This document shows positions 1 through 17,841 of a stretch of 20,000 nucleotides of DNA, piece by piece. Made by a program: the position numbers and the translations under genes. The notes under the pieces were generated by a model. That model saw only the letters and a program-made list of their open reading frames with translations. It did not search any database and had not been told where the DNA came from. The stretch lies in the sequence record SRR31156797_636, one strand, 5' to 3'. Position 1 is the first letter of the stretch; each line of letters opens with the position of its first letter.

Positions 1-1221
1 CGTAACCGTCGTTGCACAAGCTGCACCCAAATACGAAAAACTCGGGATAAACAGCAGATTAAGAACCATATTCAACGGAACAAGCCAGAGATACACCCGC
101 ATGAGGCATTGCTGTTCGTTTCCGGCAATGATCATATTCCCGTGCAACTCGCCAATGAACATCATGGCTGAAGTGGGTAACAGTATGAGAAAAGTCAACG
201 CAGTGGGCGACAGGCCATGCATGGCTGCCGTAGAAAAGATGCTCGCCCCGTCGCCAAAACCGGGCCCGGTTATGAGTTTCATGAGCGGATTGGCGAGAAT
301 AACGCCTCCCACCAGCATGGGAACGGCCGCCAATGAAAGTGTTTTGTATGCCCGCGCGTAATGCCTTGGCAAATCCCCCTTCGACTCGGCAAAAGCCCTA
401 GACAAAAGCGGAAAGAGGATTCCCATAAAAACACTGGGAATCACTGACCCTACCTCTATAATGCGATAGGCCGCGCCATAAATTCCTGAGTGGCTCACCG
501 GTTTGAGCCAGGAGAGCATCATGATGTCCAGACGGAAATAAACGATGGCCATAAAGCCGGAGATGCCAAGTGGCACGGCAGGAACAACCATGGACCACAT
601 TGTCGGTCCGGAAATAGAAAACGAGAGCCGGGCCAGAGGACGGGAGAATACCCAATTTAAGAGACAGATGAGCACTTTCCCGAAAACAAGAATGGCGACT
701 ATGGCCAGCAAGCCGTAGCCTGCGCCCAGAAAATACCATGACAGGACAAGAATACTCACCGAGGCTATGGACTCAGACAATGCCATGAAATGCATCTTGA
801 GCCGTATCTGAAAAATCCCCTGAAACACTGCTGCCAACGAGATGAAGACAACAGCACACAACCCGACATGCAATGCGTTCTTTAACGGCTGCGCATATGG
901 CATGAAGGGGATGAAGACAAAGGCAATCGCGAGTGCCGCCAGAGAATACAGCAATTTGATTAGAAATAGATTTCCGGCCACAGCCGAAAACGACGAACCG
1001 GCGATGGACATTTCCCTGATACCGGTCTTTGATAGACCGAAGTCGGCCAGGGCTGCCGTCACCCCCAGCCAAGCCATAATAACGGAGTAGTCACCAAACC
1101 CTGTCTCTCCCAAGCCACGAGTGAGGACTCCCGCCAAAACCAATCCGCAGACCATCACAGAAACCTTGCCAGCAAGGATGATCATTGTATTGATATTTAT
1201 GTCGTCAAAAAATCTGTGCAT
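1..1221 (-). CDS. wzx: Wzx-type oligosaccharide flippase (MOP/PST family); 3' end lies beyond the left window edge
   Basis: Not in the ORF track. I translated both ends by hand. ATG at 1221 gives MHRFFDDININTMIILAGKVSVMVCGLVLAGVLTRGLGETGFGDYSVIMAWLGVTAALADFGLSKTGIREM (RxLGxxxFGxY and DFGL flippase patterns). Bases 60..1 in the same frame give NLLFIPSFSYLGAACATTVT, the typical C-terminal NLLLIPxxGxxGAAxAT pattern. It starts 7 bp after the GT9 stop. Confidence 0.9.
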   Translation of the reverse strand, partial: MHRFFDDININTMIILAGKVSVMVCGLVLAGVLTRGLGETGFGDYSVIMAWLGVTAALADFGLSKTGIREMSIAGSSFSAVAGNLFLIKLLYSLAALAIAFVFIPFMPYAQPLKNALHVGLCAVVFISLAAVFQGIFQIRLKMHFMALSESIASVSILVLSWYFLGAGYGLLAIVAILVFGKVLICLLNWVFSRPLARLSFSISGPTMWSMVVPAVPLGISGFMAIVYFRLDIMMLSWLKPVSHSGIYGAAYRIIEVGSVIPSVFMGILFPLLSRAFAESKGDLPRHYARAYKTLSLAAVPMLVGGVILANPLMKLITGPGFGDGASIFSTAAMHGLSPTALTFLILLPTSAMMFIGELHGNMIIAGNEQQCLMRVYLWLVPLNMVLNLLFIPSFSYLGAACATTVT

Positions 1222-1228
1222 GGACAAA

Positions 1229-2326
1229 TCAGCGCTGTTGAAAAGACAGCGAGGCCGCAGATTGGATAAATTGGTCGGAGGTATCGACTATCCTGACATT
1301 GTCCCCCAGCGGCCTCCACATTTCCGGGGAGCTCTCGCCTTTCCTATAATAGGCAATCGTCTGCGTACCGGAGGTGCCGCCCAAGTGGGCGGACAGGGAT
1401 TCGAGCGCAAACACGACTGAAGCCTCTCCATACAGAGAAAGCAACTCCTCCAATTGAAAATGACCTGTGTAATCATGCAAACGACGATCAGTCATCGCCT
1501 GAATTTCCAACCCCAGTTTGCCTTCATCTGCAGTACCACATACGAGTATCGCTACTCCTTCAGGCAGGGCGTCAGCCGTTGCGGCCCATACATCCGATGG
1601 CAACATTCTTTCTGTTGCCCCGCTACCAGGCTGGAAGATGACAAAAGGGGACAATTCCCGTTCCACGACCATATCCCGAACCCCGCTCCGCACAGATTCG
1701 GAGACTGACATTTCACACCGTAGCTCTTCGAGGCTCGCCTCTATCCCCAGCGGCGCGAGAACTTCCAAGTAATGCTCGACTTCGTGTTTCCCGGGAATCC
1801 AGGGGACTTCTTCATCAAAAAACCAACCGCCGCCGCCAGTCCCGTGACCAACGCAATATCGGCTCCCGGACAAACCGCAGAACGTCACGAGATTACCGCC
1901 GAAGGCCCGGAGATTCAGGCACAGGTCATATTCAACTTTCCTGACCTCGCGAATCGTAAAGTAGAATGATTTCATAAAAATTATTAACTTGTGCCACAGG
2001 GAGGCTTTGGACCGATTGAGCATCCAGTGGTCAACGACGAACACATGATCGACGATGGTGCTATCGCGAATCACAGGCAAACTTCCAGAATTGACGACCA
2101 TGTCGATCCGGGAATCTGGAAACCGTTTGCGAAGGAGCGGAAGAACGGAACTCGTCAGCAGCAAGTCCCCAAGATGGTCCGGCTTAATGACAAGAATGCT
2201 GCGCACTTGCCGTGGCATCCCCCGCTTCTTGATCGCCAGCCGTCGCATCACGCCGTCAATGCAGGAGAGCAGCAGCACGACTGCTTTGTTGTTGTATAAG
2301 TAGCCATGGCACAATTTCCGAATCAT
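1229..2326 (-). CDS. Glycosyltransferase family 9 (ADP-heptose:LPS heptosyltransferase-like)
   Basis: SILVIKPDHLGDLLLTSSVLPLLRKRFPDSRID, HEVEHYL, FQPGSG and ESLSAHLG match GT9 motifs. Start moved from 2476 to the ATG at 2326 (MIRKLCHGY) to avoid head-to-head overlap with the 2388 gene; exact start uncertain. Confidence 0.85.
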   Translation of the reverse strand: MIRKLCHGYLYNNKAVVLLLSCIDGVMRRLAIKKRGMPRQVRSILVIKPDHLGDLLLTSSVLPLLRKRFPDSRIDMVVNSGSLPVIRDSTIVDHVFVVDHWMLNRSKASLWHKLIIFMKSFYFTIREVRKVEYDLCLNLRAFGGNLVTFCGLSGSRYCVGHGTGGGGWFFDEEVPWIPGKHEVEHYLEVLAPLGIEASLEELRCEMSVSESVRSGVRDMVVERELSPFVIFQPGSGATERMLPSDVWAATADALPEGVAILVCGTADEGKLGLEIQAMTDRRLHDYTGHFQLEELLSLYGEASVVFALESLSAHLGGTSGTQTIAYYRKGESSPEMWRPLGDNVRIVDTSDQFIQSAASLSFQQR

Positions 2327-2387
2327 AACGTTTAGTCTGTACTTCACGGTACTTCTATTGTAAAGATTAACCGTTGGAGGACAGCGG

Positions 2388-3512
2388 ATGAGCATGACCA
2401 TCGGAGTCGATGCGCGGCACCTTGACGGGACCATGCATGGCATAGTCAGATACACGATAAAAACCATGGAGCACATGGTACAATCTCGCCGCTACCATTT
2501 TGTCCTCCTGTCTAACAATCCCATTGACCATCCATTCAAAAATAAAGACGCCGTCAGTGTTCATGTTGACTCAAAGTTCTCCCAGATGCCCGGTACCCTA
2601 TGGCTTGCCCTCCGAGCCGGACACCTTCTCCGCAAGCTCGGCATAAACATTTTTTGGAGCCCCCTGCACGCACTCCCTCTCTACGGAGCATCAAACATTC
2701 CACTGGTTGTCACCATCCACGATTTGGCCCACATCTATTTCCCAAAATCAATGACATTGAAAAACCAGATCGTTCACCGGGTCTTTTTCTCCAAAGCCAT
2801 CGCCAAGGCAACACAAATCATCGCCGTATCCCAAACAACTCGGAACGACCTGAAAAAAGAATTCGGCGCAGATGCCGCTGCAAAAACCTCAGTAATTTAC
2901 GAAGGCAGATCTGAGCTTCCTCCGTCATCCAGCCCCCCACTGATCAAGGGAGATTACTTGTTGTGCATCGGGTCAGTAGAACCACGCAAGAATATCGCCA
3001 GCACAGTCGAAGCTCTCCGCCTCCTTATCCAGGATTACCCACAACTGCGCTTGGTCGTTGCCGGAGGACGCAGTTGGAAGCAGGCGTCCTTATTCAAGAG
3101 CATCGCGAAGCAGGGACTCTCGGGAAAAGTCATCTTTACCGGTCAGTGTACTGACGAAGAACTTTCCAATTATATAGCGCATACCAAGGCATTCCTTTTC
3201 CCTTCACTCTATGAAGGATTCGGGCTCCCACTGCTGGAAACACTCAAACAATGTCCGGCAGTCATCTCTGACATTCCGATTTTTCGAGAGCTTGGTCAAC
3301 ACCTCTCCGGCGTTCTATACGCCGACTTTCAGCAACCGTCGTCTGCTGCAGCCCAAATACGACAAATTCTTAGCACTCCCTCCTCAGAAAATTCAGATTT
3401 CGTCACCCCTGCAGCATCAAAAATTTTCTCTTGGGAAACGTGCGCATCCCAGCATGAAGAACTTTTCATGCAGTCCACCGTCTCCACTCGCTTAAGGCAC
3501 GAATTGCCTTGA
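2388..3512 (+). CDS. Glycosyltransferase family 4 (MtfB/WbaZ-like, GT-B fold)
   Basis: IGVDAR...GIVRY, VVTIHDL, IIAVSQTT, GSVEPRKN, FPSLYEGFGLPLLE and FSWE motifs. GGAGG RBS at 2376-2380. Confidence 0.93.
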   Translation: MSMTIGVDARHLDGTMHGIVRYTIKTMEHMVQSRRYHFVLLSNNPIDHPFKNKDAVSVHVDSKFSQMPGTLWLALRAGHLLRKLGINIFWSPLHALPLYGASNIPLVVTIHDLAHIYFPKSMTLKNQIVHRVFFSKAIAKATQIIAVSQTTRNDLKKEFGADAAAKTSVIYEGRSELPPSSSPPLIKGDYLLCIGSVEPRKNIASTVEALRLLIQDYPQLRLVVAGGRSWKQASLFKSIAKQGLSGKVIFTGQCTDEELSNYIAHTKAFLFPSLYEGFGLPLLETLKQCPAVISDIPIFRELGQHLSGVLYADFQQPSSAAAQIRQILSTPSSENSDFVTPAASKIFSWETCASQHEELFMQSTVSTRLRHELP

Positions 3513-3624
3513 CGTTTTCAGCTTTTTTGAAAATATTAAAATTATACTGTTTATACAATTTTTATGTATGGTGCATATTGAATTTATACTGACAAACACT
3601 CCCCCCAAAACCAAGTAGAGAGTT

Positions 3625-4671
3625 ATGAACAAAGCTTTTTTTCAAGATAAATGTATCCTGGTCACTGGCAGTTGCGGAACCATCGGTAGCGAGCTTATTC
3701 ATCAGTTACTCAAAGAATACGGCGTCAAGAAACTCATCGGTATTGACAATAATGAAACCGAACTTTTCTTCCTCAGCCAGCGCCACCTCGAACACAAGGA
3801 AGCCGAATTTTATCTGGCAGACATCCGTGACCACCAAAAACTTTACAATCTCATGCAAGGTGTTGACATCGTTTTCCATGCAGCGGCCTATAAGCATGTC
3901 GCCATGTGCGAGATATCTCCCTTCGAAGCAGTTCAAACCAACATTCTAGGCGTGAAAAACATTGTTTCCGCAGCTGCGGAAAACGGCGTCGAAAAAGTCA
4001 TTTTCACTAGCTCGGACAAGGCCGCAAACCCCACCAACGTCATGGGTACATCCAAACTCATGGGAGAACGTCTGATTACGGCGGCCAACCAGACAGTTAA
4101 CTACAACGGAACCATTTTCGCCTCCACCCGATTCGGCAACGTGCTAGGCTCCAACGGTTCCGTCATTCCCATTTTCAGGGAACAGATTCGTGAAGGTAAA
4201 CCCATCACCCTAACCGACCCTCAGATGACCCGCTTCATCATGAGCATTCCCGGAGCTGTCCAATTGGTCATCAATTCCGCCCAGATCGCATGCGGCGGCG
4301 AGGTCTTCGTCACAAAGATGCCCGTCATCAGGATTCAGGATCTTGCCGAAGTCATGATTGAAGAACTTCCATCGCAGTTCGGCAGAAAACCCGAGGACAT
4401 CGACATCAAGATCATCGGCATCAAACCCGGCGAAAAGCTGTACGAAGAACTGATGACAGACGAAGAGACCAGCAGAACCGTTGAACTTGAACAATACTTC
4501 AGCGTGCTCCCGGCCCTGAGAATGCACTACGGCAACATCGATTATAGCTACGAAGGAGTCCTTTCCGAGACCATCGACAACGCTTATAACTCTCACAACG
4601 AGACCCCATTAAGCAAAGCAGACCTCAAAGACTTTCTGATTCGCAGCAAGCTGATTGAAGGGCTTGACTAA
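3625..4671 (+). CDS. Soluble UDP-N-acetylhexosamine 4,6-dehydratase/epimerase (CapD/FnlA/PseB-like extended SDR)
   Basis: VTGSCGTIG Rossmann motif, HAAAYKHV, SSDKA, MGTSK (MxxxK variant of YxxxK), RFGNVLGSNGSV, MTRF and PGEKLYEEL. No N-terminal membrane domain. Confidence 0.92.
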   Translation: MNKAFFQDKCILVTGSCGTIGSELIHQLLKEYGVKKLIGIDNNETELFFLSQRHLEHKEAEFYLADIRDHQKLYNLMQGVDIVFHAAAYKHVAMCEISPFEAVQTNILGVKNIVSAAAENGVEKVIFTSSDKAANPTNVMGTSKLMGERLITAANQTVNYNGTIFASTRFGNVLGSNGSVIPIFREQIREGKPITLTDPQMTRFIMSIPGAVQLVINSAQIACGGEVFVTKMPVIRIQDLAEVMIEELPSQFGRKPEDIDIKIIGIKPGEKLYEELMTDEETSRTVELEQYFSVLPALRMHYGNIDYSYEGVLSETIDNAYNSHNETPLSKADLKDFLIRSKLIEGLD

Positions 4672-4673
4672 GA

Positions 4674-5702
4674 ATGCGCAAACTTGGAAGAGCTATTATG
4701 AAGAAAGTAAAAGCACACCCCAGACAAAAAAAGTCCCCCTTCTCCGGTGTTGGAAAACTTTTTTTTGTTGCCTGCCTGGCTATGACTCTTCTTATACTGG
4801 ATGGGGAGCGGCAGGCCGCTGCGCAGGACACTCTCAATCTGGATGGAAAAATCTATTACAGGGCCGTCAGAAAGATCAAAAACAAGTACCCTGGCAAAAT
4901 AGTTGAAATCAATGTAAAAAAGTTTCAACCAGTTTCGAAAAACGAAGTTCTCGCTGCTTACAGAATAACCCGAGCGGAACAACAGGAACTTCAGCACGAG
5001 ATCGATTTCCCTTCTATAAGAAAAACAGAGATATCCATCGAAGAGGTCCAGACTGACATAAAAGGAAAAGAAAGAAAAAAAAAATCGCTCATGGTCCTCG
5101 TCAACGAGGGGCTGGCCTCGTCACAAAATATGGACACATTGGACGAGGACATCCGAATTCTCAACCTCAGAAAGGAATTCCTTGAGGAAGAGCTAAAACA
5201 CTTCAAACGACAGCAGGCCAGGGAAAAGAGCAGGATATCAGAAGAATTGGGAGGAATCTCCCTTGCTTCCGGTGTTATTCCGCGTGATATCCCCATCACA
5301 ACCAAACTCCCCGGACACGTTGTGAAGGTAGGTATCCTTGCAAGCAGTAAAATAAAGAAAAACAGGGTGTGCTTTGAAATCACTAGGTTGAACCGAATAC
5401 TGGTGCGCTGCAAAGTCTACGAAGAGGATTACATCAAGCTTGCCCTCGGCCAAAAGGCATTCATAATTTCACAAGGGACACCTGGGAAAGAATATCCTGC
5501 ACACTTGTCACGGCTTCCTCTTCGCCCGACAGACAAAGGCTATGCGGCATTGTCATATTATCTGGTAGACTTCATCATGAACAACCCAAATTTAAAATTC
5601 AGAGCCGGTAACCGCGTTACGGTAAAAGTCGACCTTGCTAGCAAGCCCGAACCTATTGCTCCGAAAAAAAACAGAACAAATAAACCGACAAGAAAACAAT
5701 AA
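4674..5702 (+). CDS. HlyD/MacA-like periplasmic adaptor (membrane fusion protein), paralog 1
   Basis: N-terminal basic plus hydrophobic segment, YPGKIVEINVK lipoyl half-motif, central coiled-coil, ITTKLPGHVV second half-motif and C-terminal beta-barrel pattern (VYEEDYIKLALGQ...NPNLKFRAGNRVTV). Start could be 4698. Confidence 0.8.
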   Translation: MRKLGRAIMKKVKAHPRQKKSPFSGVGKLFFVACLAMTLLILDGERQAAAQDTLNLDGKIYYRAVRKIKNKYPGKIVEINVKKFQPVSKNEVLAAYRITRAEQQELQHEIDFPSIRKTEISIEEVQTDIKGKERKKKSLMVLVNEGLASSQNMDTLDEDIRILNLRKEFLEEELKHFKRQQAREKSRISEELGGISLASGVIPRDIPITTKLPGHVVKVGILASSKIKKNRVCFEITRLNRILVRCKVYEEDYIKLALGQKAFIISQGTPGKEYPAHLSRLPLRPTDKGYAALSYYLVDFIMNNPNLKFRAGNRVTVKVDLASKPEPIAPKKNRTNKPTRKQ

Positions 5703-5818
5703 GACTCTGAGCAAGAAGCGGAGATCTGGAATGTCACTGTCCAAACAGAAAGAGGTTCCTTTTCACACTTACCTACGAGCGAGCATCTCTCCTCTTTCAA
5801 CAGGAGAAGCTTTCCGTC

Positions 5819-5834
5819 CGGCCCGTTGCATGCT
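5819..5834 (+). promoter_or_regulatory. Candidate sigma54 (-24/-12) promoter for wbaP
   Basis: CGGCCCGTTGCATGCT has GG and GC at the canonical spacing, in the intergenic gap about 125 bp upstream of the likely wbaP start. Confidence 0.45.
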
Positions 5835-5960
5835 ATAAGGCCCTAAGCTAATTTACTGAAACAATTTGAAGCGGAAACAAACGAGGCAACCTTATTGCCC
5901 TCATACGCCCCGGGCTGCCAAGTGGCATCGCCTGCGGGACATTGGAAATTGCGAAGAAGG

Positions 5961-7376
5961 ATGATTGACAACAAAACCAATCTTATCGCCTGCCGTCCAT
6001 GGCTCATGCCTGTCACGCTCGCGTGTTCCGACTTTCTGGCCGTCACCATTTCCGGTGCGGCAAGCGTTCTTCTTCGATATGCCTTTGGCGGCGAATTCGA
6101 ACTGATTTCTTATCTTTACCTCTGGCCAACCGCCCTCCTGTTTGTCCTAGCCTATGCTTTCATGGGGGCTTACAGGGTCTTGATGCCGCTTCCGCTGGAA
6201 CTAAAACGATGTTCATTTGGAACAGTCTTCATAATCTTTGTTCTGGCAGCAATCACCTTCTGGTCAAGAAACGCCGATGACTATTCAAGACTCGTCCTTC
6301 TTTTTTCCTTTGCAACCATCCTCGTTGCCGTGCCGTATTGTCGAAAAAAATGTAGGGAACACTTTGCCTCGCTCCCGGGCTGGGGTCTTCCTGTTATCAT
6401 TTATGGAGACGGCGAAACTGCGCAAAGCGTCATACAAAACCTTCAGTTACGCGTCAGCCTTGGCCTGACCCCAGTGGCTATCGTCAAACACAGCGAAACT
6501 TCAGACACTTCAATAAACAACATCCCGGCATGGGATCGCTCTTCGCTTCAGGAATTGGCGAAAACATACCCGTGTTCGTATTTTATTGTCGCTGAATCCG
6601 GGCTGGACAATAACGAATACCGTGAACTCCTTAACACTTCTTATAAGCACTTCCCAAAAACTATCGTCATCCCAGACCTTTTTGGACAGGCAAGCATATG
6701 GGCCACCACTGTTGACATAAGCGGTATCCTCGGCTTGGAAACAGGGCAAAAACTTCTTTCCCCGCCATCGCAGTTCTACAAGCGAATAATGGATGTCACA
6801 AGCTCCTTTCTCGGATTGATCGTTCTGCTCCCGGTTTTCCTGATCATCGGCCTCATCATCAAGATGGATAGCCTCGGCCCCGTTCTCTACAGGCAGAAGC
6901 GTCTTGGCAAAGGGGGGGGGGAAGTGGACGTATGGAAATTCAGAACCATGGTCCAAAATGCGGACGAGGTGCTCAAGGACTACTTGCAGCAGGATCCCGT
7001 CTTGAAAACAAAATGGGAGCAGGATCACAAGCTTGACAACGATCCCCGAATCACCCGGGTTGGCGGCTTCATGAGAAAATACAGCATAGACGAACTGCCG
7101 CAACTGTTCAATGTACTCAAAGGTGAAATGAGCCTCGTCGGCCCAAGACCCATCGTCAAAGCCGAAGTCGCAAAATACATGGACAATTACGAACTGTACT
7201 CGAAAGTACTTCCCGGAATGACGGGCTTATGGCAAGTATCAGGGCGAAGTAATCTTTCATACAGCGAAAGAATCAATCTCGATGTCTATTACATCCGCAA
7301 CTGGTCTGTCTGGTTTGATCTGTACATCCTCACCAGAACTCCAGCTGCAATTTTCAATTGTGTCGGCGCCTTCTGA
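5961..7376 (+). CDS. wbaP: Undecaprenyl-phosphate hexose-1-phosphate transferase (WbaP/WcaJ type)
   Basis: Four N-terminal TM segments, IIYGDG CoA-binding-like domain, [54 protein letters not shown] and [12 protein letters not shown] at 5961 after GAAGAAGG is preferred over TTG at 5895. Sugar specificity not determinable. Confidence 0.93.
6912..6921 (+). repeat. G10 homopolymer inside wbaP
   Basis: GGC AAA GGG GGG GGG GAA (GKGGGE); currently in frame. Confidence 0.9.
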
Positions 7377-7414
7377 CAACCGCACTGACTAAGTACCCAG
7401 CTGCAATTTAGATA

Positions 7415-8596
7415 ATGAACCTGAAGTCCGTCCTAAACACTTTTCTCGTCAGCTTTGTCTGCTTTCAGAGCGTATTCCTGACGCCATACGTCATCATTGT
7501 CTCCACTGACAGAAGCAATCTCTTCACGCCGATTCTGGCGGGGACAGCGCTTGTCATTATCGCTTTCACTCAAGGACGACGAACCGTCTTCGCCAAATGG
7601 GACGTCCTGCTATGGTTGGCCCTCGGAGCAACCATGGCTTACGGGGTCACCCTGACAACCGATGTGCCATCGTCAGCCTATCGCGCATTCTCCCTCTATA
7701 TTCCGGCCTTAAGCGGATACTGGGTTGGACGTCTGCTGTCCTATGATCAGTATTGGAAAAAGATGGCGCCATATATAATGAGCGGTCTCTTCTTCCTCAT
7801 GTCATCCATTCAAATCATAAACGGGGTTGGTGCTCCCATACTACAACTGCATCACCATGCGCTGTCCAACCTTCTGCTTCTTTTGGCAGTCGGGCCAGCC
7901 ACTTTCCTCATGCGTGGCCCCCTCTACATCAAGGCAGCGTGTGCCACGATTTTAAGCATGGGCTATTTCGCATGTTACATCGTCGGTTCACGCTTCACGG
8001 TCGTTTTGCCGATACTGCTGCTGCCTCTCATGTCAATCCTTAAACTGCTACGATTCAAATGGCTCCTTATTGCCGGAATCCCCTTTCTCGCAGCAGCGTG
8101 CATCTTCTTCATTCAAAAGCCTGAAAAAATACTCAAAATTCATGATTACGAATCTGTTTTCTACAGGGTCGAAGGTCTTCCAGCCGCGATCCACCTCATC
8201 AAGAAACACCCTTTTTTCGGCATTGGACTTCGCACCGAACGCGAACCGTATCTTGAAGACTATAAAATGACTTTCGACATGACAAGCCGCGAACGATTCA
8301 TGCTGGTCGTTCGAAAGAACGTGACGCAGGACAACATGCTAATGACGCTGCTTGTGGGCCTTGGGATCATACCCACACTCTTGTATCTCGGTTTGATCTG
8401 GGCCTATCTCAAACGTCTCATCAAGGCCATCAAAACACAACGCGACGGGCCGCTCAACTCCATAGCGCTTGCTTTTGCCTTATGTGCCAGCGTACTTCAT
8501 TTCAGTGTTCAGGACGGACTTCTTTATCCGCAGGTCAGTTGGCTCTTCCATCTGCTCATAGGCATGATCCCGAGCAAGGACAGCTCAGCTACATAA
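7415..8596 (+). CDS. O-antigen ligase/polymerase-like membrane protein (Wzy_C family)
   Basis: About 10-12 hydrophobic segments, GSR after a TM helix, and a periplasmic loop with SVFYR...HPFFGIG...TQDN. Lies directly downstream of wbaP. Confidence 0.82.
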   Translation: MNLKSVLNTFLVSFVCFQSVFLTPYVIIVSTDRSNLFTPILAGTALVIIAFTQGRRTVFAKWDVLLWLALGATMAYGVTLTTDVPSSAYRAFSLYIPALSGYWVGRLLSYDQYWKKMAPYIMSGLFFLMSSIQIINGVGAPILQLHHHALSNLLLLLAVGPATFLMRGPLYIKAACATILSMGYFACYIVGSRFTVVLPILLLPLMSILKLLRFKWLLIAGIPFLAAACIFFIQKPEKILKIHDYESVFYRVEGLPAAIHLIKKHPFFGIGLRTEREPYLEDYKMTFDMTSRERFMLVVRKNVTQDNMLMTLLVGLGIIPTLLYLGLIWAYLKRLIKAIKTQRDGPLNSIALAFALCASVLHFSVQDGLLYPQVSWLFHLLIGMIPSKDSSAT

Positions 8597-9659: not shown

Positions 9660-9731
9660 GGATCCCTCCTTTACTGCGGTATAGGCAGGCGCAACACCTC
9701 ATGCGCGCAGGTCTTGCGGCCGACTTAATTG

Positions 9732-11438
9732 TTATTCCGGACTTCCTGAAATATTTGCGGCCATCTTTTTGACGTCAAGGACTTTGACTCCCGGACCGAT
9801 AATTACTCCCGGCAAATCCGCATCCAGCACCGCGAAACCATCTCCATGAGCTGCCAGCGCCCGAATCTCATCGTCGAAAGGTGCAAAGAATGCACCTCCG
9901 GCAATAAACTCATCCTCGAAAAACTGTTCATCGACAACAAAATAATCAACGCTGTTTCTTTGACAAAAACTCACAATTTCAAGCAAATCTGAAGAGTAAT
10001 AGGCTTTAAATAGATCTTCCAGTCGGGGCTGAATGACTTTCCAGTAACCGACGCACCAAGGATGCGCCAATTCATAAGAAACAAAAACATTCCGCTGTCC
10101 GAACATGAGCAAATTGTCCATCTGGTAGGGGTGTCCGGCAACAAGAACATCCTTGTCAGTGGTAGAGCGAACAAACTCGCAAACCGGACGATCATGGGTA
10201 TAATCATACAGTGCGACCCCTTGGAGGCGCACACATCCGATGACGAATCCCGTGACAAGAACGCAAACCATAAACGTCTCACGCTTCAGGCGGAAATATC
10301 GGCATACCCCGACGAGTGCGCACCCCAGAAGACAACAATATAAAATATTCATCGTGTATTCCAGATAACGGGACGGGATGAACAGCTGCAACAAAATCAA
10401 TCTGGCCAAGATGTAAAGAGCAAAGGAAGCACTACCGATACTCAGCCACACCACTACGCTGGATTTGACACTCTTCCACTGAAAACCCCGAATACCAAAA
10501 AAGAGAAGACCAACGCACACCGCCACTCCAATTCCACCCACAACAGGCCCCCCGTCACGGAATGGAGCAATGTACTCAAAAGGCCGGACAAATAATTCCC
10601 AAAAGAGTGAAGGCACCGGCAAAATTCCAAAACGACCAGCTTCATAGAATTCAGGCCTGCCAGTCATGTCAGCCATACTTGCCATAGGGCCAAAACCCGC
10701 CAGATGCATTTGAAAACGCCAAGCCAGAAGCCCGCAACAGGCAAGGGCTGAGATAACGTAATCCGACCATTTGACGAGGAATGGCGGCGGCGATGTCAAC
10801 TCGAAACGCCAAGCAATCATGGCTAGACCGATGCTGCCACCACACAGAATAAAAATATATGGGATAAAAAAGGCCTGAAGCAATAGAGCCCCGGCCATCA
10901 GCCAACGCACACGGCGGACCCAGGCCAAAATGAACAGGAGCATTAGTGGCCCCGCGAATGCCCTGGACAATCCCCCGGATATGGAATGCAAAAATATGGG
11001 CATCGCCCAGTACACGGCCACCATGGACAAGCCTAAAGCCTCATCGGCCATGGACTTGCCGACCCAATAGGCAAACATCGCCATCAGAACGAACAGAACC
11101 CCTGTCAGCAACTTGGAGAACAACAAGGGAGACACGACCATGGCAGCTACAAAGTACAGCGACTGCACCCCCCAGGGAACATAGCGCATGGCATATTCAT
11201 TCAAAATGCTCTCTGGATACAGGGCCGGATCAAGCCACCGTTGCATCCAGTAAAGCTGCTGGCGCGTATCATCATTGATGATATATGAATTCAGGAATCC
11301 GGTATGATGTGATATGAGAAAAAGAAGAGTCGAAAAAATTAAAACAAAAAAGGGTGCATATCTGCACACTGCCCCCCAAAGGGTAGCGGTGAATTGGCCT
11401 GTCCCAGACACAACACCCGTTCCTCTATGGAGCGTCAT
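9732..11438 (-). CDS. Multi-pass membrane protein, putative GT-C fold glycosyltransferase
   Basis: 568 aa with about 11-13 hydrophobic segments, an acidic pair (INDD) in the loop after TM1, a PSRY motif near the last TMs and a C-terminal soluble domain of about 160 aa. The CDS is certain; the function is inferred. Confidence 0.6.
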   Translation of the reverse strand: MTLHRGTGVVSGTGQFTATLWGAVCRYAPFFVLIFSTLLFLISHHTGFLNSYIINDDTRQQLYWMQRWLDPALYPESILNEYAMRYVPWGVQSLYFVAAMVVSPLLFSKLLTGVLFVLMAMFAYWVGKSMADEALGLSMVAVYWAMPIFLHSISGGLSRAFAGPLMLLFILAWVRRVRWLMAGALLLQAFFIPYIFILCGGSIGLAMIAWRFELTSPPPFLVKWSDYVISALACCGLLAWRFQMHLAGFGPMASMADMTGRPEFYEAGRFGILPVPSLFWELFVRPFEYIAPFRDGGPVVGGIGVAVCVGLLFFGIRGFQWKSVKSSVVVWLSIGSASFALYILARLILLQLFIPSRYLEYTMNILYCCLLGCALVGVCRYFRLKRETFMVCVLVTGFVIGCVRLQGVALYDYTHDRPVCEFVRSTTDKDVLVAGHPYQMDNLLMFGQRNVFVSYELAHPWCVGYWKVIQPRLEDLFKAYYSSDLLEIVSFCQRNSVDYFVVDEQFFEDEFIAGGAFFAPFDDEIRALAAHGDGFAVLDADLPGVIIGPGVKVLDVKKMAANISGSPE

Positions 11439-11439
11439 A

Positions 11440-12387
11440 CTATTTTACATCAGCCTTTTCATTTTCCGTAAACATGATCCGGACCTTATAGCCTTCCTTC
11501 AGGAAATTGTCAGGATTGTCGATTTCCAATTCAGCAGCATAATATGACGGCGCATCGATATTGGTGTCAACCGGCAACCACGACATAGACACCAGCTTGG
11601 CCTTCATGACCTTGTCAGGATTGAATTCCACTATGACCTCAGCTGTATCACCCGGCTTCAAACGATACATGTCAGCTTCATATACCTGAGTCCGAATGAT
11701 CATCGGGTCCATAACACCGATAGCAAAAACGGATTCATCAACGATTGCTCCCAACTCCACATTGGTGTTTTCCCATATAATATAGCCCTCGATGGGAGAA
11801 CGAACATACATCTGGGACGTATCCAACCTACGGTCACCTTTTTGCCCAAGCATTTCAGCAATCAACAACCTATCATCAGCAGCCCGTTTTTGATCTTGAG
11901 TCAACTCTTTCTTTGCCTGCTCGACCTGAAACGAGATGAGGGATATCTGATCCCTCAAGGAAGCAACACCCTTATCCGTCGCCAGTCCCTGCTGACTCAG
12001 AGTCTTGTTTGACTCAAGCTGTTTATTGAGAGTCTTGAGTCTAGCTTTCCACTTCTTGATCTCCAGCTCTTGGCGAGTAAATTCAAGCTTCTTGTCAACC
12101 CTGGCTTCAAGGCCGAGAGCGTCCTTGCGCTTGAGACGTACTTTCATCAGCACGTCGTCCTTTTTCACCAATTGGCCAACGCTCACCTTCTTCTCAATCA
12201 CCTCGCCGGAATAGGGCAGCTTTACGGGATGTGTCATCGAGCAATAGACCTTCCCCTGAAAAATCGTCTCAACCGCATTCGCAGCAGAACTAATACCATG
12301 CTTCTGCTGACCATACGCAAACGAGCAGGCCAGCAGCAGAGTGGTCATTAAAACTATCGCAGCAAGTCTAATTTTCCAGGTCATCAT
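11440..12387 (-). CDS. HlyD/MacA-like periplasmic adaptor, paralog 2
   Basis: Signal-like N-terminus (possible lipobox LLAC), YSGEVIEKKVSVGQLVKKDDVL, coiled-coil, VRSPIEG, VYEADMYRLKPGD and NPDNFLKEGYKV. ATG at 12387 or 12384 overlaps the end of the tolC-like gene. Confidence 0.88.
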   Translation of the reverse strand: MMTWKIRLAAIVLMTTLLLACSFAYGQQKHGISSAANAVETIFQGKVYCSMTHPVKLPYSGEVIEKKVSVGQLVKKDDVLMKVRLKRKDALGLEARVDKKLEFTRQELEIKKWKARLKTLNKQLESNKTLSQQGLATDKGVASLRDQISLISFQVEQAKKELTQDQKRAADDRLLIAEMLGQKGDRRLDTSQMYVRSPIEGYIIWENTNVELGAIVDESVFAIGVMDPMIIRTQVYEADMYRLKPGDTAEVIVEFNPDKVMKAKLVSMSWLPVDTNIDAPSYYAAELEIDNPDNFLKEGYKVRIMFTENEKADVK

Positions 12388-13822
12388 CTTTAATCTCAAT
12401 GTACTGTTCCAACAACCTACCCGTCAGGGCATAAGTCTCCAATTTACGTACTATATAACTTTGTTGTTTGGACAACAAAGTTATTTCCTTGAGTACAACG
12501 GCAACTTTTGCCGACACGAAATCCCTGAATGTCGCTTCTCCAGCGTCAAACAAAATCTCCTTCTTTCTCAGCATCATCTCCTGCAACTCCAGATCGACCT
12601 TAGCAAGTTCAAGCTCGCGTTGCATGCTGCGCAATTCCGTCAACCCTTTGTACCAGTTATCTTCTTTGGTCAAGTTTGAGAGCTGACGCCTAAATCCTTC
12701 ATTCTTTTTGACAAGTTCGGCCCTATCGGTATTTCGGCCAAGTTCGCCCCAATGCAAAACCGGAACTGTAATGCCAAGGGTCAAATAAAAATCTTCCTTG
12801 CCGTCTGTCGATGAGCTGATCGGATCAGGAGTTCTTACGGAAACGGAAAACTTAGGCACATAATTAGCCCAAGCTGCATAAACACCATAATTCGATAATT
12901 CTTTACGGATGACGTTCATTTTCGAAAAAAGTGCGCTGCTCTTCATCTCCTGATAAGTAATCTTGTGTGGAGCATACACCGCATCAACCACGCTGGCAAA
13001 GTCGCTTTTTTTCAGAACTATTTTTTGTTCGACCGGAATACCGATCATCCGCTTGACCCGCATCTCCATATCGGAACGCTGCTCAATGAAAGTCCGCCTG
13101 TTGCAGGCAACTTTTTGCAGTTCCTGTTCAGCCAAACGGACTTCGAGTGGCACCACTGGAGCGTTGGGGTACATTTTCTGGATATATGAGAGAGTTTCAT
13201 TTCCGAATGCCTCAAGTTTCCGCTGCTCATCCATTATTTTATCAAAAAACTCAGCATGAATATAAACCTTGATGACATTGGCAATTAGCTCGTTGGCAGC
13301 CTGAAGTTTTTGATATTTTGCAAGCTTGGTCACGAGCAAACTGGCATCATGACTCAAATAAGACCCAATGGGGTCCCATGTGCCACTACTAAAGCTCACC
13401 GACAACTTGTTACGCGACTTGTCGTCCTTCGTTGTCAGATTCACGTTGTTGCTGACGTAAAGATTCAGCTTGGGAAACATCCTCCACCACTTATTTTCTT
13501 CATCAATCTTCTTGATGTCGATTTCGACCTCGGCCATCTTCATGTACGGAGATTTTTCCAGAGTCAGCTGGATGCATTCTTCAAGAGTCAGGGGATCTGT
13601 CACAAAAGATTCGGTCGAAGTAGGAGTAGCACCATTCCCGGTAGAAAGTGTCGCACTAGCGGTTTCCCAATCCACAGGGGACGGAGTTTCACTCGTGGCC
13701 CCACAGCCAAAAGCAACGAGCATCATAAGCAGCATGCACCCCAAAGTCAGCTTGCAGCCGACCAAGGACGCGAAACGCTTTTTTTTGATATTATATTTTT
13801 CTACCCTGCTTTTCATAAGCAT
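12368..13822 (-). CDS. TolC-family outer membrane efflux protein, probable lipoprotein
   Basis: Basic N-region, hydrophobic stretch and AFGC lipobox-like motif; LTLEECIQL, FPKLNL, YVPKFSV, GITVPVLHWG and FDAGEATFRD fit the duplicated OEP architecture. Confidence 0.85.
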   Translation of the reverse strand: MLMKSRVEKYNIKKKRFASLVGCKLTLGCMLLMMLVAFGCGATSETPSPVDWETASATLSTGNGATPTSTESFVTDPLTLEECIQLTLEKSPYMKMAEVEIDIKKIDEENKWWRMFPKLNLYVSNNVNLTTKDDKSRNKLSVSFSSGTWDPIGSYLSHDASLLVTKLAKYQKLQAANELIANVIKVYIHAEFFDKIMDEQRKLEAFGNETLSYIQKMYPNAPVVPLEVRLAEQELQKVACNRRTFIEQRSDMEMRVKRMIGIPVEQKIVLKKSDFASVVDAVYAPHKITYQEMKSSALFSKMNVIRKELSNYGVYAAWANYVPKFSVSVRTPDPISSSTDGKEDFYLTLGITVPVLHWGELGRNTDRAELVKKNEGFRRQLSNLTKEDNWYKGLTELRSMQRELELAKVDLELQEMMLRKKEILFDAGEATFRDFVSAKVAVVLKEITLLSKQQSYIVRKLETYALTGRLLEQYIEIKDDDLEN

Positions 13823-13968
13823 TAAGAGTCCGATCAGATGAGTCCTTCAATTTCGTTGCTGTAGTTCGACTCATGTATAACCATGTCGAGTAGCCCCCTT
13901 TGTTTAACGACAAAAATCTTTTATGTACACATATTTCACTAGGCAAAAGGAGCAACTCCCGACAAGAT

Positions 13969-13984
13969 TGCACTTTCTATTCCA
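13969..13984 (-). promoter_or_regulatory. Candidate sigma54 (-24/-12) promoter for the tolC-adaptor-GT-C unit
   Basis: Minus strand TGGAATAGAAAGTGCA has GG and GC at canonical spacing within the 209-bp gap upstream of the tolC-like gene. Confidence 0.35.
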
Positions 13985-14031
13985 TGGCAAAAGCATGTGC
14001 AGAAAAAAGCTCCGATTTTTTGGCAACGATT

Positions 14032-14715
14032 TTACTGTTCCTTCAGTATTCCATCTTCAAGGAGAAATCTTCGGGTACAACGCTTGGCAACTTCCGTATC
14101 ATGAGTAACCAAAACCATGGCCTTCCCTTTGATAGAAACAATTTTCTCAAAATATTTCATTATCTTCTCACCCGTCTTCCGATCAAGCTGTCCTGTAGGC
14201 TCGTCCCCCAACAAAACTTGAGGACGATTCACTAGGGCACGGGCAATGGCGACACGCTGCTGTTCACCGCCGGACAGGCGGTTCGTAGCGTGATGAATCC
14301 TGTGAGACAGATTTACCTCCTTCAGTGATTCTTCAATGATTCCAGCACGTTTAGCTCTCGATATCTTTCCGTAAATAAGCGGATACTCGAGATTTTCATA
14401 GACCGTAGAATTTTCAAACAGGTTGCACGACTGAAGCACAAAACCAAGATTATCCCGTCTGAATCCGGCCCTCTCCTTAACATTCAGACCGAGCACATCA
14501 CGACCAAGTATCTTGTAGCTGCCAGAGGTAGCTGGCTGCAACATCCCCATAATATACAACAAGGTGGATTTTCCACAACCTGAAGGCCCCATGATGGAAA
14601 CCATCTCGCCAGGATAAATATTGACATCCACACCGGTCAACACAGGCACCTTGCCCGCCGGAGTGACGTACTCCTTCCGAAGATTCTTAACTGAAATGAT
14701 AGGATCAGGTTTCAT
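14032..14715 (-). CDS. ABC transporter ATP-binding protein (MacB/LolD/DevA-like)
   Basis: Walker A GPSGCGKST, signature LSGGEQQRVAIARAL, Walker B LLGDEPTGQLD and H-loop VTHD. Confidence 0.96.
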   Translation of the reverse strand: MKPDPIISVKNLRKEYVTPAGKVPVLTGVDVNIYPGEMVSIMGPSGCGKSTLLYIMGMLQPATSGSYKILGRDVLGLNVKERAGFRRDNLGFVLQSCNLFENSTVYENLEYPLIYGKISRAKRAGIIEESLKEVNLSHRIHHATNRLSGGEQQRVAIARALVNRPQVLLGDEPTGQLDRKTGEKIMKYFEKIVSIKGKAMVLVTHDTEVAKRCTRRFLLEDGILKEQ

Positions 14716-14719
14716 ATCG

Positions 14720-15949
14720 CTACTCGAACCGTATTGCGGTCACGGCATCCAATCTCGATGCCCTCAATGCCGGATAATATCCTGTAACAAGTCCAAGCAT
14801 TCCGGAAAAGACAATACTCATACCGGCATAGGTAATGAACACATCTCGCGACGGGCTGCTCCCGAGGAAATGACTGGCGAACTCAACAACCACATATCCC
14901 AATAGCACCCCGAATATGGCAGCACTTATACTCAGACAAAAAGCCTCACAAAGAAACTGACTCTTGATGTCCCGCCCCTCGGCTCCCATCGCTTTTTTCA
15001 GTCCGATCTCACGAGTCCTGGCAATGACGGAACTCATCATACCATTCCAGATACCAAAACCGCCAAGCGTCAGAGTTGCGCCGATAGACAAAAAAATGAA
15101 CAGCTCCACCCACCACACGATGAGCACCAACCGATGCAACTGCTCCCAAGAGACATGACTGACCAGATAATCTGCGGACTGGTGAGCCTTGACCGTGGCC
15201 ACCAACGCGTCGGCCACAGGTTTAACATCGTCCCATGTCTTGCAACGCAGGTATATCCTGTCCGAACGGTATTCCTTGCCGCTCCGGTCAATGGCCGCCG
15301 TCAACGGAACAAAGGCATAGGAATTGCGCTGTCCGATCTGAAGCCCCCCGACAACGCCAAGAACCTTATAAAGGTCCTTACCGATACGGATGTAGTTGCC
15401 CAAGGCGCTTTCTTGACCAAACAACGACTCTGCGAGCTCTTCACCAATCACGCAAACCAGTGACCGTTCATCGACAAAGGATTTGCCAAACAGGAATCCG
15501 GCAACCGGCTCCAGGCTGTTGGCGGACCAGTAATCGGCATCAACTCCCTGGACCGGAACGATATTTTTTTCCCCGTTAACAAGCATCGGAACCCAGTTGA
15601 TGGTCTCGGTTGCGGCGCTAACAACATCAACGCCCGGCAATGCCCGCAAGGCATCCTGAGTTTCGTCGGTAAAGAATTTGTCCCTGGCTCCGGGGTGCTT
15701 TTCCTCTTCAAATCCCAACTTGATAAGGGTCGCACCTCCAAGAAGATCAAGGTCATGGTTGAGCTTCTTCTTGACCTCATCACCCATGGCCATCACTGCA
15801 AGCAAACTCGCCGTCCCCAAGGCAATAGCCAACATCACGCCGAAACTGCGGCGGCGCTGTCGGAACACCTGACGAACGCTGATGTGTATTAGATCTCGTG
15901 CTGTGATCATATTCTGAAGACATCCCCGTTCAAGGGGATCTAAAGGCAT
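14720..15949 (-). CDS. ABC transporter permease (MacB/FtsX family)
   Basis: TM1, large periplasmic domain, then three TMs; GGFGIWNGMMSSVIARTREIGLKKAMGA, QFLCEA and YPALRASRLDAVTAIRFE. Start may be the downstream Met (MITARD). Confidence 0.94.
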   Translation of the reverse strand: MPLDPLERGCLQNMITARDLIHISVRQVFRQRRRSFGVMLAIALGTASLLAVMAMGDEVKKKLNHDLDLLGGATLIKLGFEEEKHPGARDKFFTDETQDALRALPGVDVVSAATETINWVPMLVNGEKNIVPVQGVDADYWSANSLEPVAGFLFGKSFVDERSLVCVIGEELAESLFGQESALGNYIRIGKDLYKVLGVVGGLQIGQRNSYAFVPLTAAIDRSGKEYRSDRIYLRCKTWDDVKPVADALVATVKAHQSADYLVSHVSWEQLHRLVLIVWWVELFIFLSIGATLTLGGFGIWNGMMSSVIARTREIGLKKAMGAEGRDIKSQFLCEAFCLSISAAIFGVLLGYVVVEFASHFLGSSPSRDVFITYAGMSIVFSGMLGLVTGYYPALRASRLDAVTAIRFE

Positions 15950-15972
15950 CCTTGAGGTATGCCATCACCATT

Positions 15973-17178
15973 CTAATTGACGATGCCAACGCCAAGAGCG
16001 GAAGCAACTTTTTTAAAGCAATTCAAAACCTGTTCAATATGCTTGTCTTCGTGCGTACTCATGAACGCCACCCGAATGATGGCCTCTCCCTTCGGAACCG
16101 CAGGGTAGACCGCAGGCAGAGCAAAAACGCCTACATTCAACAATTCCAAAGAAAACTTGAAGGCTTTGACTTCGTCTCCGATCAAAACGCCGATGACAGG
16201 GCTGGCTCCTTCAACCATCTCTAGCCCAATGTCCTTGAATCCCTGACGGGCTTTTCTGGTGTTCTCCCACAACTTCTGAACCAGCTCAGGCTCTTCCCGA
16301 ATGATCTTGCAGGATTCAAGCGCGGCTGCAGCGCTGGCCGCTGGCAATGCTGCGGAAAAAATCAAAGTCCGACTTTTATGCTTCACATAGTCCAGAAAAT
16401 CGAGATCATCCGTCACGATGAACCCCCCGATGGAAGCAAGGGCTTTACTGAAAGTCCCCATGATGACATCGACATCCTTTGTGACACCGAAATGGTGGGC
16501 AGTTCCCCTGCCACCTCCCATCACGCCTAAGCCATGAGCGTCATCAAGGTAGACGACCAGATTCGGGTCCTCCTCCTTGAGGGAGATCAAGCCGGGCAAG
16601 TCCGCAACGGAACCGGACATGCTAAACACGCCTTCCGAAACAGCAACCCGCTGTGCTTCAGGATGTCTGTCCATGGATTTTTTCAGAATCTTGCGTGCAT
16701 CATCCATGTTGTTATGGGCAAAGCTACGCATCTTGGCTCTGGAGTTAAGACCACCCTCAAGAATACTCGCATGACTGTCGCGGTCGCACAGCAAGAGATC
16801 ACCAGGGTCGACAAGGCAGGTGAATATTCCAGCATTCGCCAAAAAACCCGTAGTATGAACGACAGCCCCTTTCTTCCCAAGCAGATCGGCCACGGCCTCT
16901 TCAAGTTCGGTAATCACGGATATGTTCCCACACAGGAACCGGGAGCCGCCAGGGCCGCTCCCCCAACGTTCAATAGCCTTCTGAGCGGCCTCACAAACCC
17001 TCGGGTGCTGCGTTAGCCCCAAATAGTCATTGGAACCGACCATGATGGCTTTCTTCCCATTGGTCATTACCTCAGGGCCCATACTCGATTCAATTTCCTG
17101 AAAAAAGACGTAAACCCCGTCTCGTTTATATCCTGCTAATAGGGCATTGAACTCACGATTATTAAAGTACGATGGCAT
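15973..17178 (-). CDS. PLP-dependent alpha-oxoamine synthase, serine palmitoyltransferase-like (BioF/Kbl/Spt family)
   Basis: MVGSNDYLGLT, GSRFLCG, TGFLAN, DRDSHASI, FAHN, EGVFSM, DDAHGLG, GTFSKA (PLP lysine), IFSAA, PAVP loop and IIR. The family is certain; the SPT subtype is inferred from recalled similarity to Bacteroidetes-type Spt. Confidence 0.85.
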   Translation of the reverse strand: MPSYFNNREFNALLAGYKRDGVYVFFQEIESSMGPEVMTNGKKAIMVGSNDYLGLTQHPRVCEAAQKAIERWGSGPGGSRFLCGNISVITELEEAVADLLGKKGAVVHTTGFLANAGIFTCLVDPGDLLLCDRDSHASILEGGLNSRAKMRSFAHNNMDDARKILKKSMDRHPEAQRVAVSEGVFSMSGSVADLPGLISLKEEDPNLVVYLDDAHGLGVMGGGRGTAHHFGVTKDVDVIMGTFSKALASIGGFIVTDDLDFLDYVKHKSRTLIFSAALPAASAAAALESCKIIREEPELVQKLWENTRKARQGFKDIGLEMVEGASPVIGVLIGDEVKAFKFSLELLNVGVFALPAVYPAVPKGEAIIRVAFMSTHEDKHIEQVLNCFKKVASALGVGIVN

Positions 17179-17841
17179 TTATCTTCTTCACTTAATATTG
17201 AAACAATTTATGATTAGCGACTATATTTAAGCTTAAAACAAGAGGCTTAACCGGATAGCCAGCCAATATACTTCGTACACCCACTGCTTCTACTTCCTAA
17301 CCTGAGTTCATAGATTGGGTATTTTAAAGCCACTCGCTTTTCTTCAGATATCTACAAGCGGCATATATTTGTATATAAATATTATAAAAAACGCAATGTA
17401 TCAAACTCGGCCCTAAACGCATTATCCAACCGTGGAGTCAGGTTATTAAAATCATTGATCTGACTTTTCCTCTTTCCCATATTACCCCAGCTCCCTTGAA
17501 ACAACTTGCGCCAAAGACACTCCTGCCTAACACTTTTTTTAATCGAGTGCATAAGAAAAAGTACTCATATGGACTGAGTTGAGAGACAATCTCAAACCGA
17601 CACTTCAACTCCACGCTTTGACCAGCCCCTTCGAAAGACTAATCTACGGATGCTCGTTAAAAGAACAACGTCGGAAGCCGAACATGGACGCAAAGAGAGA
17701 TACTCTCATACAAGTCCTCTTCAAGCTCAGAGGAGTCGGCGTTGCCTAGAGGTGTGAATGCCTGCCATCAATTAAGCACAACCGGACAGGCGTGTCTCCT
17801 GCATGGCGACTTGAAGACAAGTCAAATCTAACTAAATATTT

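Follow-up and report, generated by a model that had tools for sequence, protein, structure and literature searches.

Within a 20,000-nucleotide stretch of sequence record SRR31156797_636 (the window, taken at its full length), the minus-strand run from 17178 to 9732 is a conserved operon, in which the gene of a serine palmitoyltransferase (Spt)-like alpha-oxoamine synthase (AOS) was found to be followed by those of a MacB-type permease, an ATPase, a TolC-like channel, a periplasmic adaptor and a glycosyltransferase of the GT-C fold. We infer from the sequence, with a probability of about 0.6 and with each chemical step predicted, that this cassette produces a ceramide-like amino-lipid with sugar attached and exports it. 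The closest named proteins of the window were those of Pseudodesulfovibrio, a sulfate-reducing bacterium, and the surroundings were read in the nearest genome (G001; complete, 3.7 Mb), which was found to be 98.9% identical across window positions 1-19732. The genes were assigned from the open reading frame (ORF) listing and from Pfam and NCBIfam profile scans of 15 window proteins, and those of the cassette are as follows.

15973-17178, minus strand: Spt-like AOS, a pyridoxal 5'-phosphate (PLP) enzyme and the first gene of the cassette (Aminotran_1_2, 157.6 bits).
14720-15949, minus strand: MacB-type ABC permease, 23 bp after the AOS (MacB_PCD, 97.9 bits, and FtsX, 51.9 bits).
14032-14715, minus strand: ABC ATPase of the LolD/MacB/DevA type, with a 4-bp gap to the permease (ABC_tran, 113.7 bits).
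12368-13822, minus strand: TolC-like outer-membrane factor, with a 209-bp gap to the ATPase (OEP, 87.1 bits, in two stretches).
11440-12399, minus strand: periplasmic adaptor of the pump, MFP2, overlapping the TolC gene by 32 bp (HlyD_D23, 44.1 bits, and HlyD_3, 40.3 bits).
9732-11438, minus strand: GT-C-fold membrane glycosyltransferase of 568 aa, assigned by fold only, with no Pfam or NCBIfam match.

All 14 genes named in a first-pass annotation of the window were recovered in the places where it had put them, and the 23-bp spacing between synthase and permease was verified.

Conservation of the synthase-pump cassette

Relatives of the synthase were collected with one genome per species, and of the 492 pattern matches 471 were found to encode relatives, from which the best 80 loci (synthase 50-59% identical) were taken and their 10-kb flanks fetched. 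The loci came mostly from Thermodesulfobacteriota metagenome-assembled genomes labelled as Desulfovibrionaceae, Desulfobaccales, Syntrophobacterales, Desulfobacterales or Desulfarculaceae, and a few from Verrucomicrobiota or Lentisphaerae. The window proteins were searched against them by tblastn, a match being counted on the same strand with a start at most 9 kb downstream of the synthase, and the denominator for each downstream gene contained only the loci with enough sequence downstream of the synthase.

The MacB permease was found downstream of the synthase in 69 of 73 loci, a frequency that places the adjacency of synthase and pump far beyond chance. The ATPase and the TolC gene were each present in 70 of 73 loci and the pump adaptor in 64 of 70, together with a tandem-GNAT acyltransferase in 51 of 68 and the 568-aa GT-C protein in 39 of 60. 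Sixty loci extended 8.8 kb or more past the synthase; all four pump genes were found in 54 of them, and the GNAT and GT-C genes were both found in 34. The gene order was maintained although protein identity was only about 50%. The loci with no MacB permease downstream were the pump-less L015, L027 and L035 and the locus L056, in which the permease was upstream; in L015 and L035 the GNAT gene was found directly after the synthase. The proposal of the first-pass annotation that synthase, ABC transporter, TolC, adaptor and GT-C protein belong together was upheld by this neighbourhood check, and their status as one conserved unit is supported.

Other genes were found around the cassette in the relatives. 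The GT4 gene that ends the minus-strand run of the window (8589-9659) had relatives in 15 of the 80 loci at varying positions, and radical-SAM genes were found alongside the cassette, as well as a GT2 enzyme resembling polyprenyl-phosphate hexose synthases near it. Desulfobaccales and Syntrophobacterales loci were also found to contain, just upstream of the synthase, three conserved proteins without a family match, namely one of about 454 aa (L047:8126-9490; 26 loci) and one of about 718 aa (L019:7363-9519; 8 loci), both membrane proteins by the look of their sequence, and one of 323 aa (L047:4961-5932; 26 loci).

The alpha-oxoamine synthase

The best NCBIfam model of the synthase was the CFB-type Spt with 401.3 bits, followed by BioF (337) and Kbl (327). 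The nearest solved structure was the Spt of Sphingobacterium multivorum (317.8 bits), followed by Thermus BioF/Kbl (255 bits), cysteate acyltransferase (202 bits) and CqsA (100 bits). The family was aligned with 17 relatives, and the PLP- and serine-binding residues of the S. multivorum enzyme were taken from the available part of PMC10196870. At 15 of the 17 active-site positions the Spt residue was found to be identical in 17 of 17 family members. The Schiff-base lysine and the PLP-binding His, Asp and His of the synthase, K245, H136, D212/D213 and H215, were found to align with K244, H138, D210 and H213 of S. multivorum Spt, respectively, and were identical in all 17 relatives. The serine-contact residues Asn52, Gly80, Ser81, Ser243 and His138 (Spt numbering) were likewise identical in the window synthase and in 17 of 17 relatives. 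The two divergent positions were Met271, which is Ile in the window and Ile or Met in the family, and Asn85, which is Cys in the window and Cys or Ser in the family. The earlier assignment to the Spt type was thus borne out, the best model, the closest structure and the active-site positions all pointing to Spt.

The pump and the GT-C protein

The MacB-type tripartite set was found to be complete, with a permease containing the MacB core and FtsX, an ATPase, an adaptor and a TolC channel, all above the Pfam cut-offs. The NCBIfam scores of the ATPase were 210.8 bits for LolD, 193.7 for DarD and 172.7 for DevA, each below its own cut-off. Scores for the two DevBCA family models were under the cut-off, both for DevB (TIGR02971, 30 against 129 bits) and for DevA (TIGR02982, 172.7 against 295.8 bits). 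Neither a promoter and terminator scan nor a reading of the 209-bp gap between the ATPase and TolC genes gave a clear promoter or terminator, the counts being about those of the shuffled expectation, and nothing was found in Rfam and tRNA scans of the window.

The GT-C protein had no Pfam or NCBIfam match, PMT_2 and STT3 being found only in more distant Atlas clusters. Its AlphaFold2 (AF2) model had a pLDDT of 91.8 and a pTM of 0.90, and the top Foldseek matches of the model were DPY19, STT3, PglB, AglB and ArnT (E 1e-7 to 5e-5; probability 1.0 for DPY19, STT3, PglB and ArnT). The 26 PDB matches at E <= 0.001 were all GT-C enzymes, AftA and AftD included, with a TM of about 0.5. The motif N55-D56-D57-R59-Q60-Q61 was found behind the first helices and was kept in at least 41 of 42 alignment rows. 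On the inferred membrane side, N55, D56 and D57 would fit the acidic first extracytoplasmic loop of GT-C enzymes. The label "GT-C-like" in the first-pass annotation was therefore right, as fold, structural matches and motif agree with it. The orthologue in the second island-bearing species, G002 (C1:3545919-3547613), was found to contain one in-frame TAG, which could be decay or a sequencing error.

The accessory island and the polyketide synthase module

The cassette, the glycan genes of the window and a run with a polyketide synthase (PKS), a GNAT acyltransferase and a short-chain dehydrogenase/reductase (SDR) were found to form one 73-kb accessory island, carried by two of 42 genomes of the genus, G001 and G002. 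Each of the genes for the GNAT, the GT-C protein and the Wzy_C protein was detected in these two alone, and among 25 genus genomes searched the Spt-like synthase was present only in G001 and G002. In G002, whose synthase is 84% identical and whose counterpart of the 8589-9659 GT4 is 74% identical, the island order was retained except for a 15-kb stretch of G001. That stretch (L085:19132 to L086:14191) had no counterpart in G002 and was found to contain two GT2 enzymes, a PMT_2 GT-C enzyme, an LPG_synthase_TM protein, a further Wzx-like protein, a methyltransferase, an amidotransferase-domain protein and several proteins without a family match.

The right edge of the island and the second lipid module are as follows.

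17179-17841, no strand: 663-bp intergenic stretch of low G+C upstream of the cassette, containing short ORFs only; right edge of the island.
G001 L084:3727-14281, 44-52 kb left of the window: MJ1255-type glycosyltransferase, 501-aa protein without a family match, 2616-aa PfaA-like type I PKS, phosphopantetheinyl transferase (PPTase), tandem GNAT and SDR.

The G+C content across window positions 17001-18000 was 0.418. The gene beyond the 663-bp stretch was an L-2-hydroxyglutarate oxidase gene, which was absent at that place in G002. At the right end of the window, the match to G001 ends after 19732, leaving 19733-20000, and no ORF of at least 100 aa was found in 19033-20000.

The 2616-aa PKS was found to contain an N-terminal FabK/NMO-like ER followed by KS, AT, acyl carrier protein (ACP), KR and DH domains. 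The GNAT was a tandem-GNAT amine acyltransferase by fold and had no NCBIfam match, and the best matches of the SDR, HpnA and the keto-lipid reductase OleD, were sub-threshold. A hopanoid reading, raised by weak HpnI, HpnA and HpnR/J matches, was rejected, all of these being far under their cut-offs. On the opposite strand beside the PKS run, a GT4, a GT21-like glycosyltransferase and a Wzx-like flippase were found, which are homologues of genes flanking the cassette in other taxa, and the MJ1255-type glycosyltransferase beside the PKS of G001 was likewise a homologue of a usual cassette neighbour. The nearest of the related loci was L008, with a synthase 59% identical; there the PKS-PPTase-GNAT-SDR run was found at most 3 kb upstream of the cassette, with no more than one GT21-like and one radical-SAM gene between them, so the two lipid modules are contiguous in L008. 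In Pseudodesulfovibrio the two modules were found at opposite ends of the 73-kb island with the glycan genes between them. The first-pass annotation had cautioned that no ACP, ceramide synthase or reductase was visible; this holds for the window, and candidates were found 44-52 kb to its left in the ACP domains of the PKS, the PPTase, the GNAT and the SDR.

G001 was also found to contain, some 25-39 kb to the right of where the window starts, a gene for a 3832-aa cadherin/Ig/VWA/RTX-repeat protein followed by a second TolC-family gene (L088:545-14580); the pair resembles a set for a type I secreted adhesin.

Predicted pathway

In the favoured reading, the synthase would use a long acyl thioester and a small amino acid, serine or another, as its two condensation substrates; the PKS with its ACP domains is a candidate source of the acyl chain. 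The tandem GNAT would N-acylate the condensation product, and the SDR would reduce its 3-keto group. The head-group sugar would come from cytoplasmic glycosyltransferases, namely the window GT4 and the GT21-like, GT4 and MJ1255-type enzymes near the PKS, and the GT-C enzyme would add a sugar at the periplasmic face from a polyprenyl-phosphate donor. MacB-type pumps act on periplasmic-side substrates, and DevBCA-HgdD exports glycolipids. The pump step is modelled on the export of heterocyst glycolipid by DevBCA-HgdD, so that the MacB pump would extract the lipid from the inner membrane at its outer leaflet and then send it through the adaptor and the TolC channel to the outer membrane or the cell surface.

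Several points weigh against this reading. The synthase reached the curated cut-off in none of the NCBIfam Spt models (CFB-type 401.3 against 640, beta-proteobacterial 318.1 against 500 and alpha 247.4 against 670 bits), for which reason its amino-acid and acyl substrates are only predicted. An additional role of the synthase in biotin synthesis is possible in G001, as it is the only AOS gene there and bioA and bioB are present. The 80 loci represent related lineages and are not independent samples, and the two island-bearing members of the genus may reflect a single acquisition. The GNAT gene is outside the operon in the host genome, its homologue being 44 kb to the left. In five other cassette-bearing genomes, PKS and SDR orthologues were found in two, far from the cassette, and in none of the remaining three, so they are not obligatory partners. 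The acceptor of the GT-C enzyme could also be a protein or a glycan.

Glycan genes and their possible tie to the cassette

The left part of the window was found to contain genes for a glycan built on undecaprenyl diphosphate (Und-PP), and its dehydratase-MFP1-WbaP-Wzy_C run on the plus strand converges on the synthase run. The features are as follows.

8589-9659, minus strand: GT4 glycosyltransferase, end of the minus-strand run (Glycos_transf_1, 104 bits).
7415-8596, plus strand: Wzy_C-family protein of the O-antigen ligase or polymerase type (Wzy_C, 34.6 bits against a cut-off of 31.7).
5895-7376, plus strand: WbaP-type polyprenyl-phosphate hexose-1-phosphate transferase (TIGR03022, 487.4 bits against a cut-off of 403).
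4674-5702, plus strand: second periplasmic adaptor, MFP1 (HlyD_D23, 39 bits).
3625-4671, plus strand: UDP-GlcNAc 4,6-dehydratase-like protein of the PseB/FnlA/CapD family (Polysacc_synt_2, 341 bits; PseB 291 and FnlA 250, both sub-cut-off).
2388-3512, plus strand: GT4 glycosyltransferase, absent from the list of the first-pass annotation (Glycos_transf_1, 88.7 bits).
1229-2476, minus strand: GT9 of the heptosyltransferase family (Glyco_transf_9, 45.3 bits; Heptosyltransferase III 90 bits, sub-cut-off).
1-1227, minus strand: Wzx/MOP-family flippase, clipped by the window edge and 485 aa long in G001 (Polysacc_synt, 80.4 bits).

WbaP, the flippase and the Wzy_C protein are parts of the Und-PP pathway. 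The first-pass annotation had called the Wzy_C protein a ligase; its membership of the Wzy_C family was confirmed, and it may be either a ligase or a polymerase, since both kinds belong to this family. A defence-system reading, raised by weak "GT4-conflict" Pfam matches, was rejected, the GT4a match being sub-cut-off, the GT4b match covering 44 residues only and a PADLOC scan of five proteins being empty. The WbaP orthologue of G002 (C1:3542155-3543569) was found split in two, a TAA separating the pieces, which could be decay or a sequencing error.

These genes raise the possibility, held tentatively here, that the whole 17 kb is one system, in which a glycan begun on Und-PP by WbaP, extended by GT4 and GT9 enzymes and flipped by Wzx would be ligated by the Wzy_C protein to the amino-lipid in place of lipid A and exported by the pump. 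Wzy_C relatives were found near the cassette in 21 of the 80 loci by tblastn and in 20 by clustering, typically some 2.4 kb upstream of the synthase gene and in many Desulfobaccales loci, and they match the window Wzy_C and not the other Wzy_C gene of the island, which favours such a system. Their similarity is modest (28% over 379 residues, or 42% over 143 residues), so they are relatives only and not established orthologues. WbaP relatives were found in 7 of the 80 loci, in every case convergent to the cassette and close to the limit of the 10-kb flank, which leaves room for further ones past this limit. Against this, tblastn found relatives of the dehydratase, Wzx and GT9 in 0 of the 80 loci. 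The proposal of the first-pass annotation that an Und-PP glycan is placed on an amino-lipid is thus weakly supported, its predicted synteny of synthase and exporter with glycan genes extending to Wzy_C and WbaP and failing for the dehydratase, Wzx and GT9.

The gene content of the genus was also found to bear on both sides. MFP1, which is a paralogue of the pump adaptor MFP2 (23% identity over 301 residues, E 6e-21), lies between the dehydratase and WbaP, and Wzy_C orthologues and the GT-C gene occur together in the two island-bearing genomes, both of which fit one system; co-inheritance in two probably sister species is, however, a single event. Wza, Wzc and Wzz, whose absence from the window had been remarked in the first-pass annotation, were found at the thresholds used neither among the 15 window proteins nor among 43 neighbouring G001 proteins, 95 kb in all, which again agrees with a linked system. 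The same is true of the island-less congeners G004, G005 and G017, in which no PF04932 (Wzy_C) match was found at E <= 0.001. Both PF04932 matches of G001 are inside the island, and an island with both Wzy_C genes could instead be an O-antigen locus acting on lipid A. The GT9 gene is one of seven GT9 matches in G001, of which the other six are outside the island, as expected for a lipopolysaccharide core. The glycan genes could therefore be an ordinary O-antigen-type set which shares the accessory island with the cassette.

A more extended version is doubtful. It would make the island the source of a second surface glycolipid independent of lipid A, in which PKS-derived acyl chains would enter a sphingoid anchor, a WaaL-like Wzy_C protein would ligate an Und-PP glycan to it, and the MacB-adaptor-TolC pump with two alternative adaptors would carry it, bypassing Lpt.

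Other explanations of the cassette

The product of the synthase and the GNAT might alternatively be a small amphiphile destined for secretion, for instance a signal of the N-acyl amino-ketone type, a surfactant or an antibiotic, that the pump expels and that is not a structural envelope lipid. MacB/TolC pumps export peptides, siderophores and toxins besides lipids, AOS enzymes like CqsA make diffusible signals and CqsA-type structures are distant matches of the synthase, the radical-SAM genes beside the cassette in relatives would suit such a product, and the island (2 of 42 genomes) is accessory, which is common for secondary-metabolite clusters. This explanation is nevertheless unlikely, because the synthase is far nearer to Spt than to CqsA (318 against 100 bits), and because the GT-C enzyme, the Wzy_C-family proteins and the many envelope glycosyltransferases fit a membrane-anchored glycolipid better.

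It is very improbable that the adjacency is meaningless, with the synthase serving as the BioF or Kbl of the cell and the pump working in the general efflux of drugs or peptides: G001 was found to contain a single AOS-family gene together with bioA and bioB, and the BioF model gave 337 bits, but this is below the cut-off of 426.45 and below the Spt model, bioA and bioB are about 0.4-0.5 Mb from the synthase and not linked to it, a different AOS (32-34% identical) adjoins bioA in the congeners G004 and G017, the congener G005 was found to contain bioA and bioB with no AOS-family match, so that the bio set of this lineage needs no such gene, and the synthase-pump order is widely kept. In G005 the source of the BioA substrate is puzzling. 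In G001 (C1:1886622-1887848), G002 and G005 (C1:489279-490505), bioA was found within a reading frame that spans about 700 aa, which suggests a fusion.

Comparison with known systems

With Anabaena DevBCA-HgdD and with MacAB-TolC, the favoured glycolipid cassette shares the same parts, that is, a permease with a periplasmic domain, a separate ATPase, an adaptor and a TolC-type channel. The DevBCA-HgdD system is also alike in that its genes are beside PKS-related glycolipid genes and in that it exports glycolipid to the surface; the lipid of the cassette would differ in containing nitrogen and in being made by an oxoamine synthase. ArnC/ArnT and PglB/STT3 share with the cassette the GT-C fold, the acidic first-loop motif and, in the relatives, the nearby GT2 resembling polyprenyl-phosphate hexose synthases, whereas the GT-C protein of the cassette is set apart from ArnT and PglB/STT3 by its lack of a Pfam family match and its TM of about 0.5. 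The Wzx/Wzy O-antigen pathway with WaaL is matched by a WbaP above its cut-off, by Wzx and by two Wzy_C-family genes in the island, and differs in that no Wzz was seen in the 95 kb and in that one Wzy_C has cassette-tied relatives in other orders.

The ceramide of Caulobacter is made by Spt, an N-acyltransferase and a reductase, according to the available text of PMC11324152. The cassette and its partners are like this Spt/bCerS/CerR system in combining an Spt-like PLP enzyme with an N-acyltransferase and an SDR-type reductase, and, as far as the accessible portions of PMC11087976, PMC11324152 and bioRxiv 10.64898/2026.04.12.717747 go, in having transporter genes within the lipid locus and an outer-membrane destination. 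They differ in that the cassette synthase is under the Spt model cut-offs, the GNAT and the SDR are candidate counterparts only, neither a dedicated small ACP nor an acyl-ACP synthetase was seen, the PKS with its ACP domains being the candidate acyl source, and a GT-C enzyme is inside the operon. The transporter also differs: in place of LptF/G paralogues the cassette has an ABC pump of the MacB type, equipped with a dedicated adaptor and TolC channel.

How bacteria transport sphingolipids is still little understood. As of 2024, no flippase or transporter had been identified for these bacterial lipids, according to the portion of PMC11087976 available. A 2026 preprint, in its available part (bioRxiv 10.64898/2026.04.12.717747), implicates LptF2/LptG2 in Caulobacter and expects transport to differ among taxa. 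On the available text of these two sources, Caulobacter LptF2/G2 are the only known bacterial sphingolipid transporters. In the same part of the preprint (bioRxiv 10.64898/2026.04.12.717747), an MmpL gene adjoining spt in Myxococcus xanthus is proposed as an alternative route of sphingolipid export. That arrangement is like the cassette in having the gene of a non-Lpt transporter beside spt in a former deltaproteobacterium, and it differs in that its transporter is an RND-type MmpL and that of the cassette an ABC/adaptor/TolC set. No paper on a locus that unites an Spt-like gene with a MacB/TolC pump and a GT-C enzyme came up in literature searches, in line with the first-pass annotation, which knew of no characterised locus with such a combination. 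What is new here is the combination of bacterial sphingolipid synthesis with a DevBCA/MacAB-type pump and a GT-C enzyme, each kind being already known.

Significance

An envelope-spanning ABC pump right behind an Spt-like enzyme is a concrete and testable candidate for a sphingolipid transport route, and the arrangement was found to be held across several orders of sulfate reducers. The genus Pseudodesulfovibrio has named species and complete genomes, and the 40 of 42 genomes without the island are natural comparison strains. A candidate PKS acyl source, N-acyltransferase and reductase were located within the same island, and the position of the cassette among Und-PP glycan genes opens the idea of an amino-lipid with a glycan to testing. 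According to the available text of PMC11334938, deoxyceramides of the Black Sea are linked to Desulfobacterota encoding Spt-like proteins, and ceramides in anaerobic sediments and euxinic waters are attributed partly to Desulfobacterota. Because environmental ceramides have been attributed in part to this group, the locus may help to tie lipid biomarkers to their producers.

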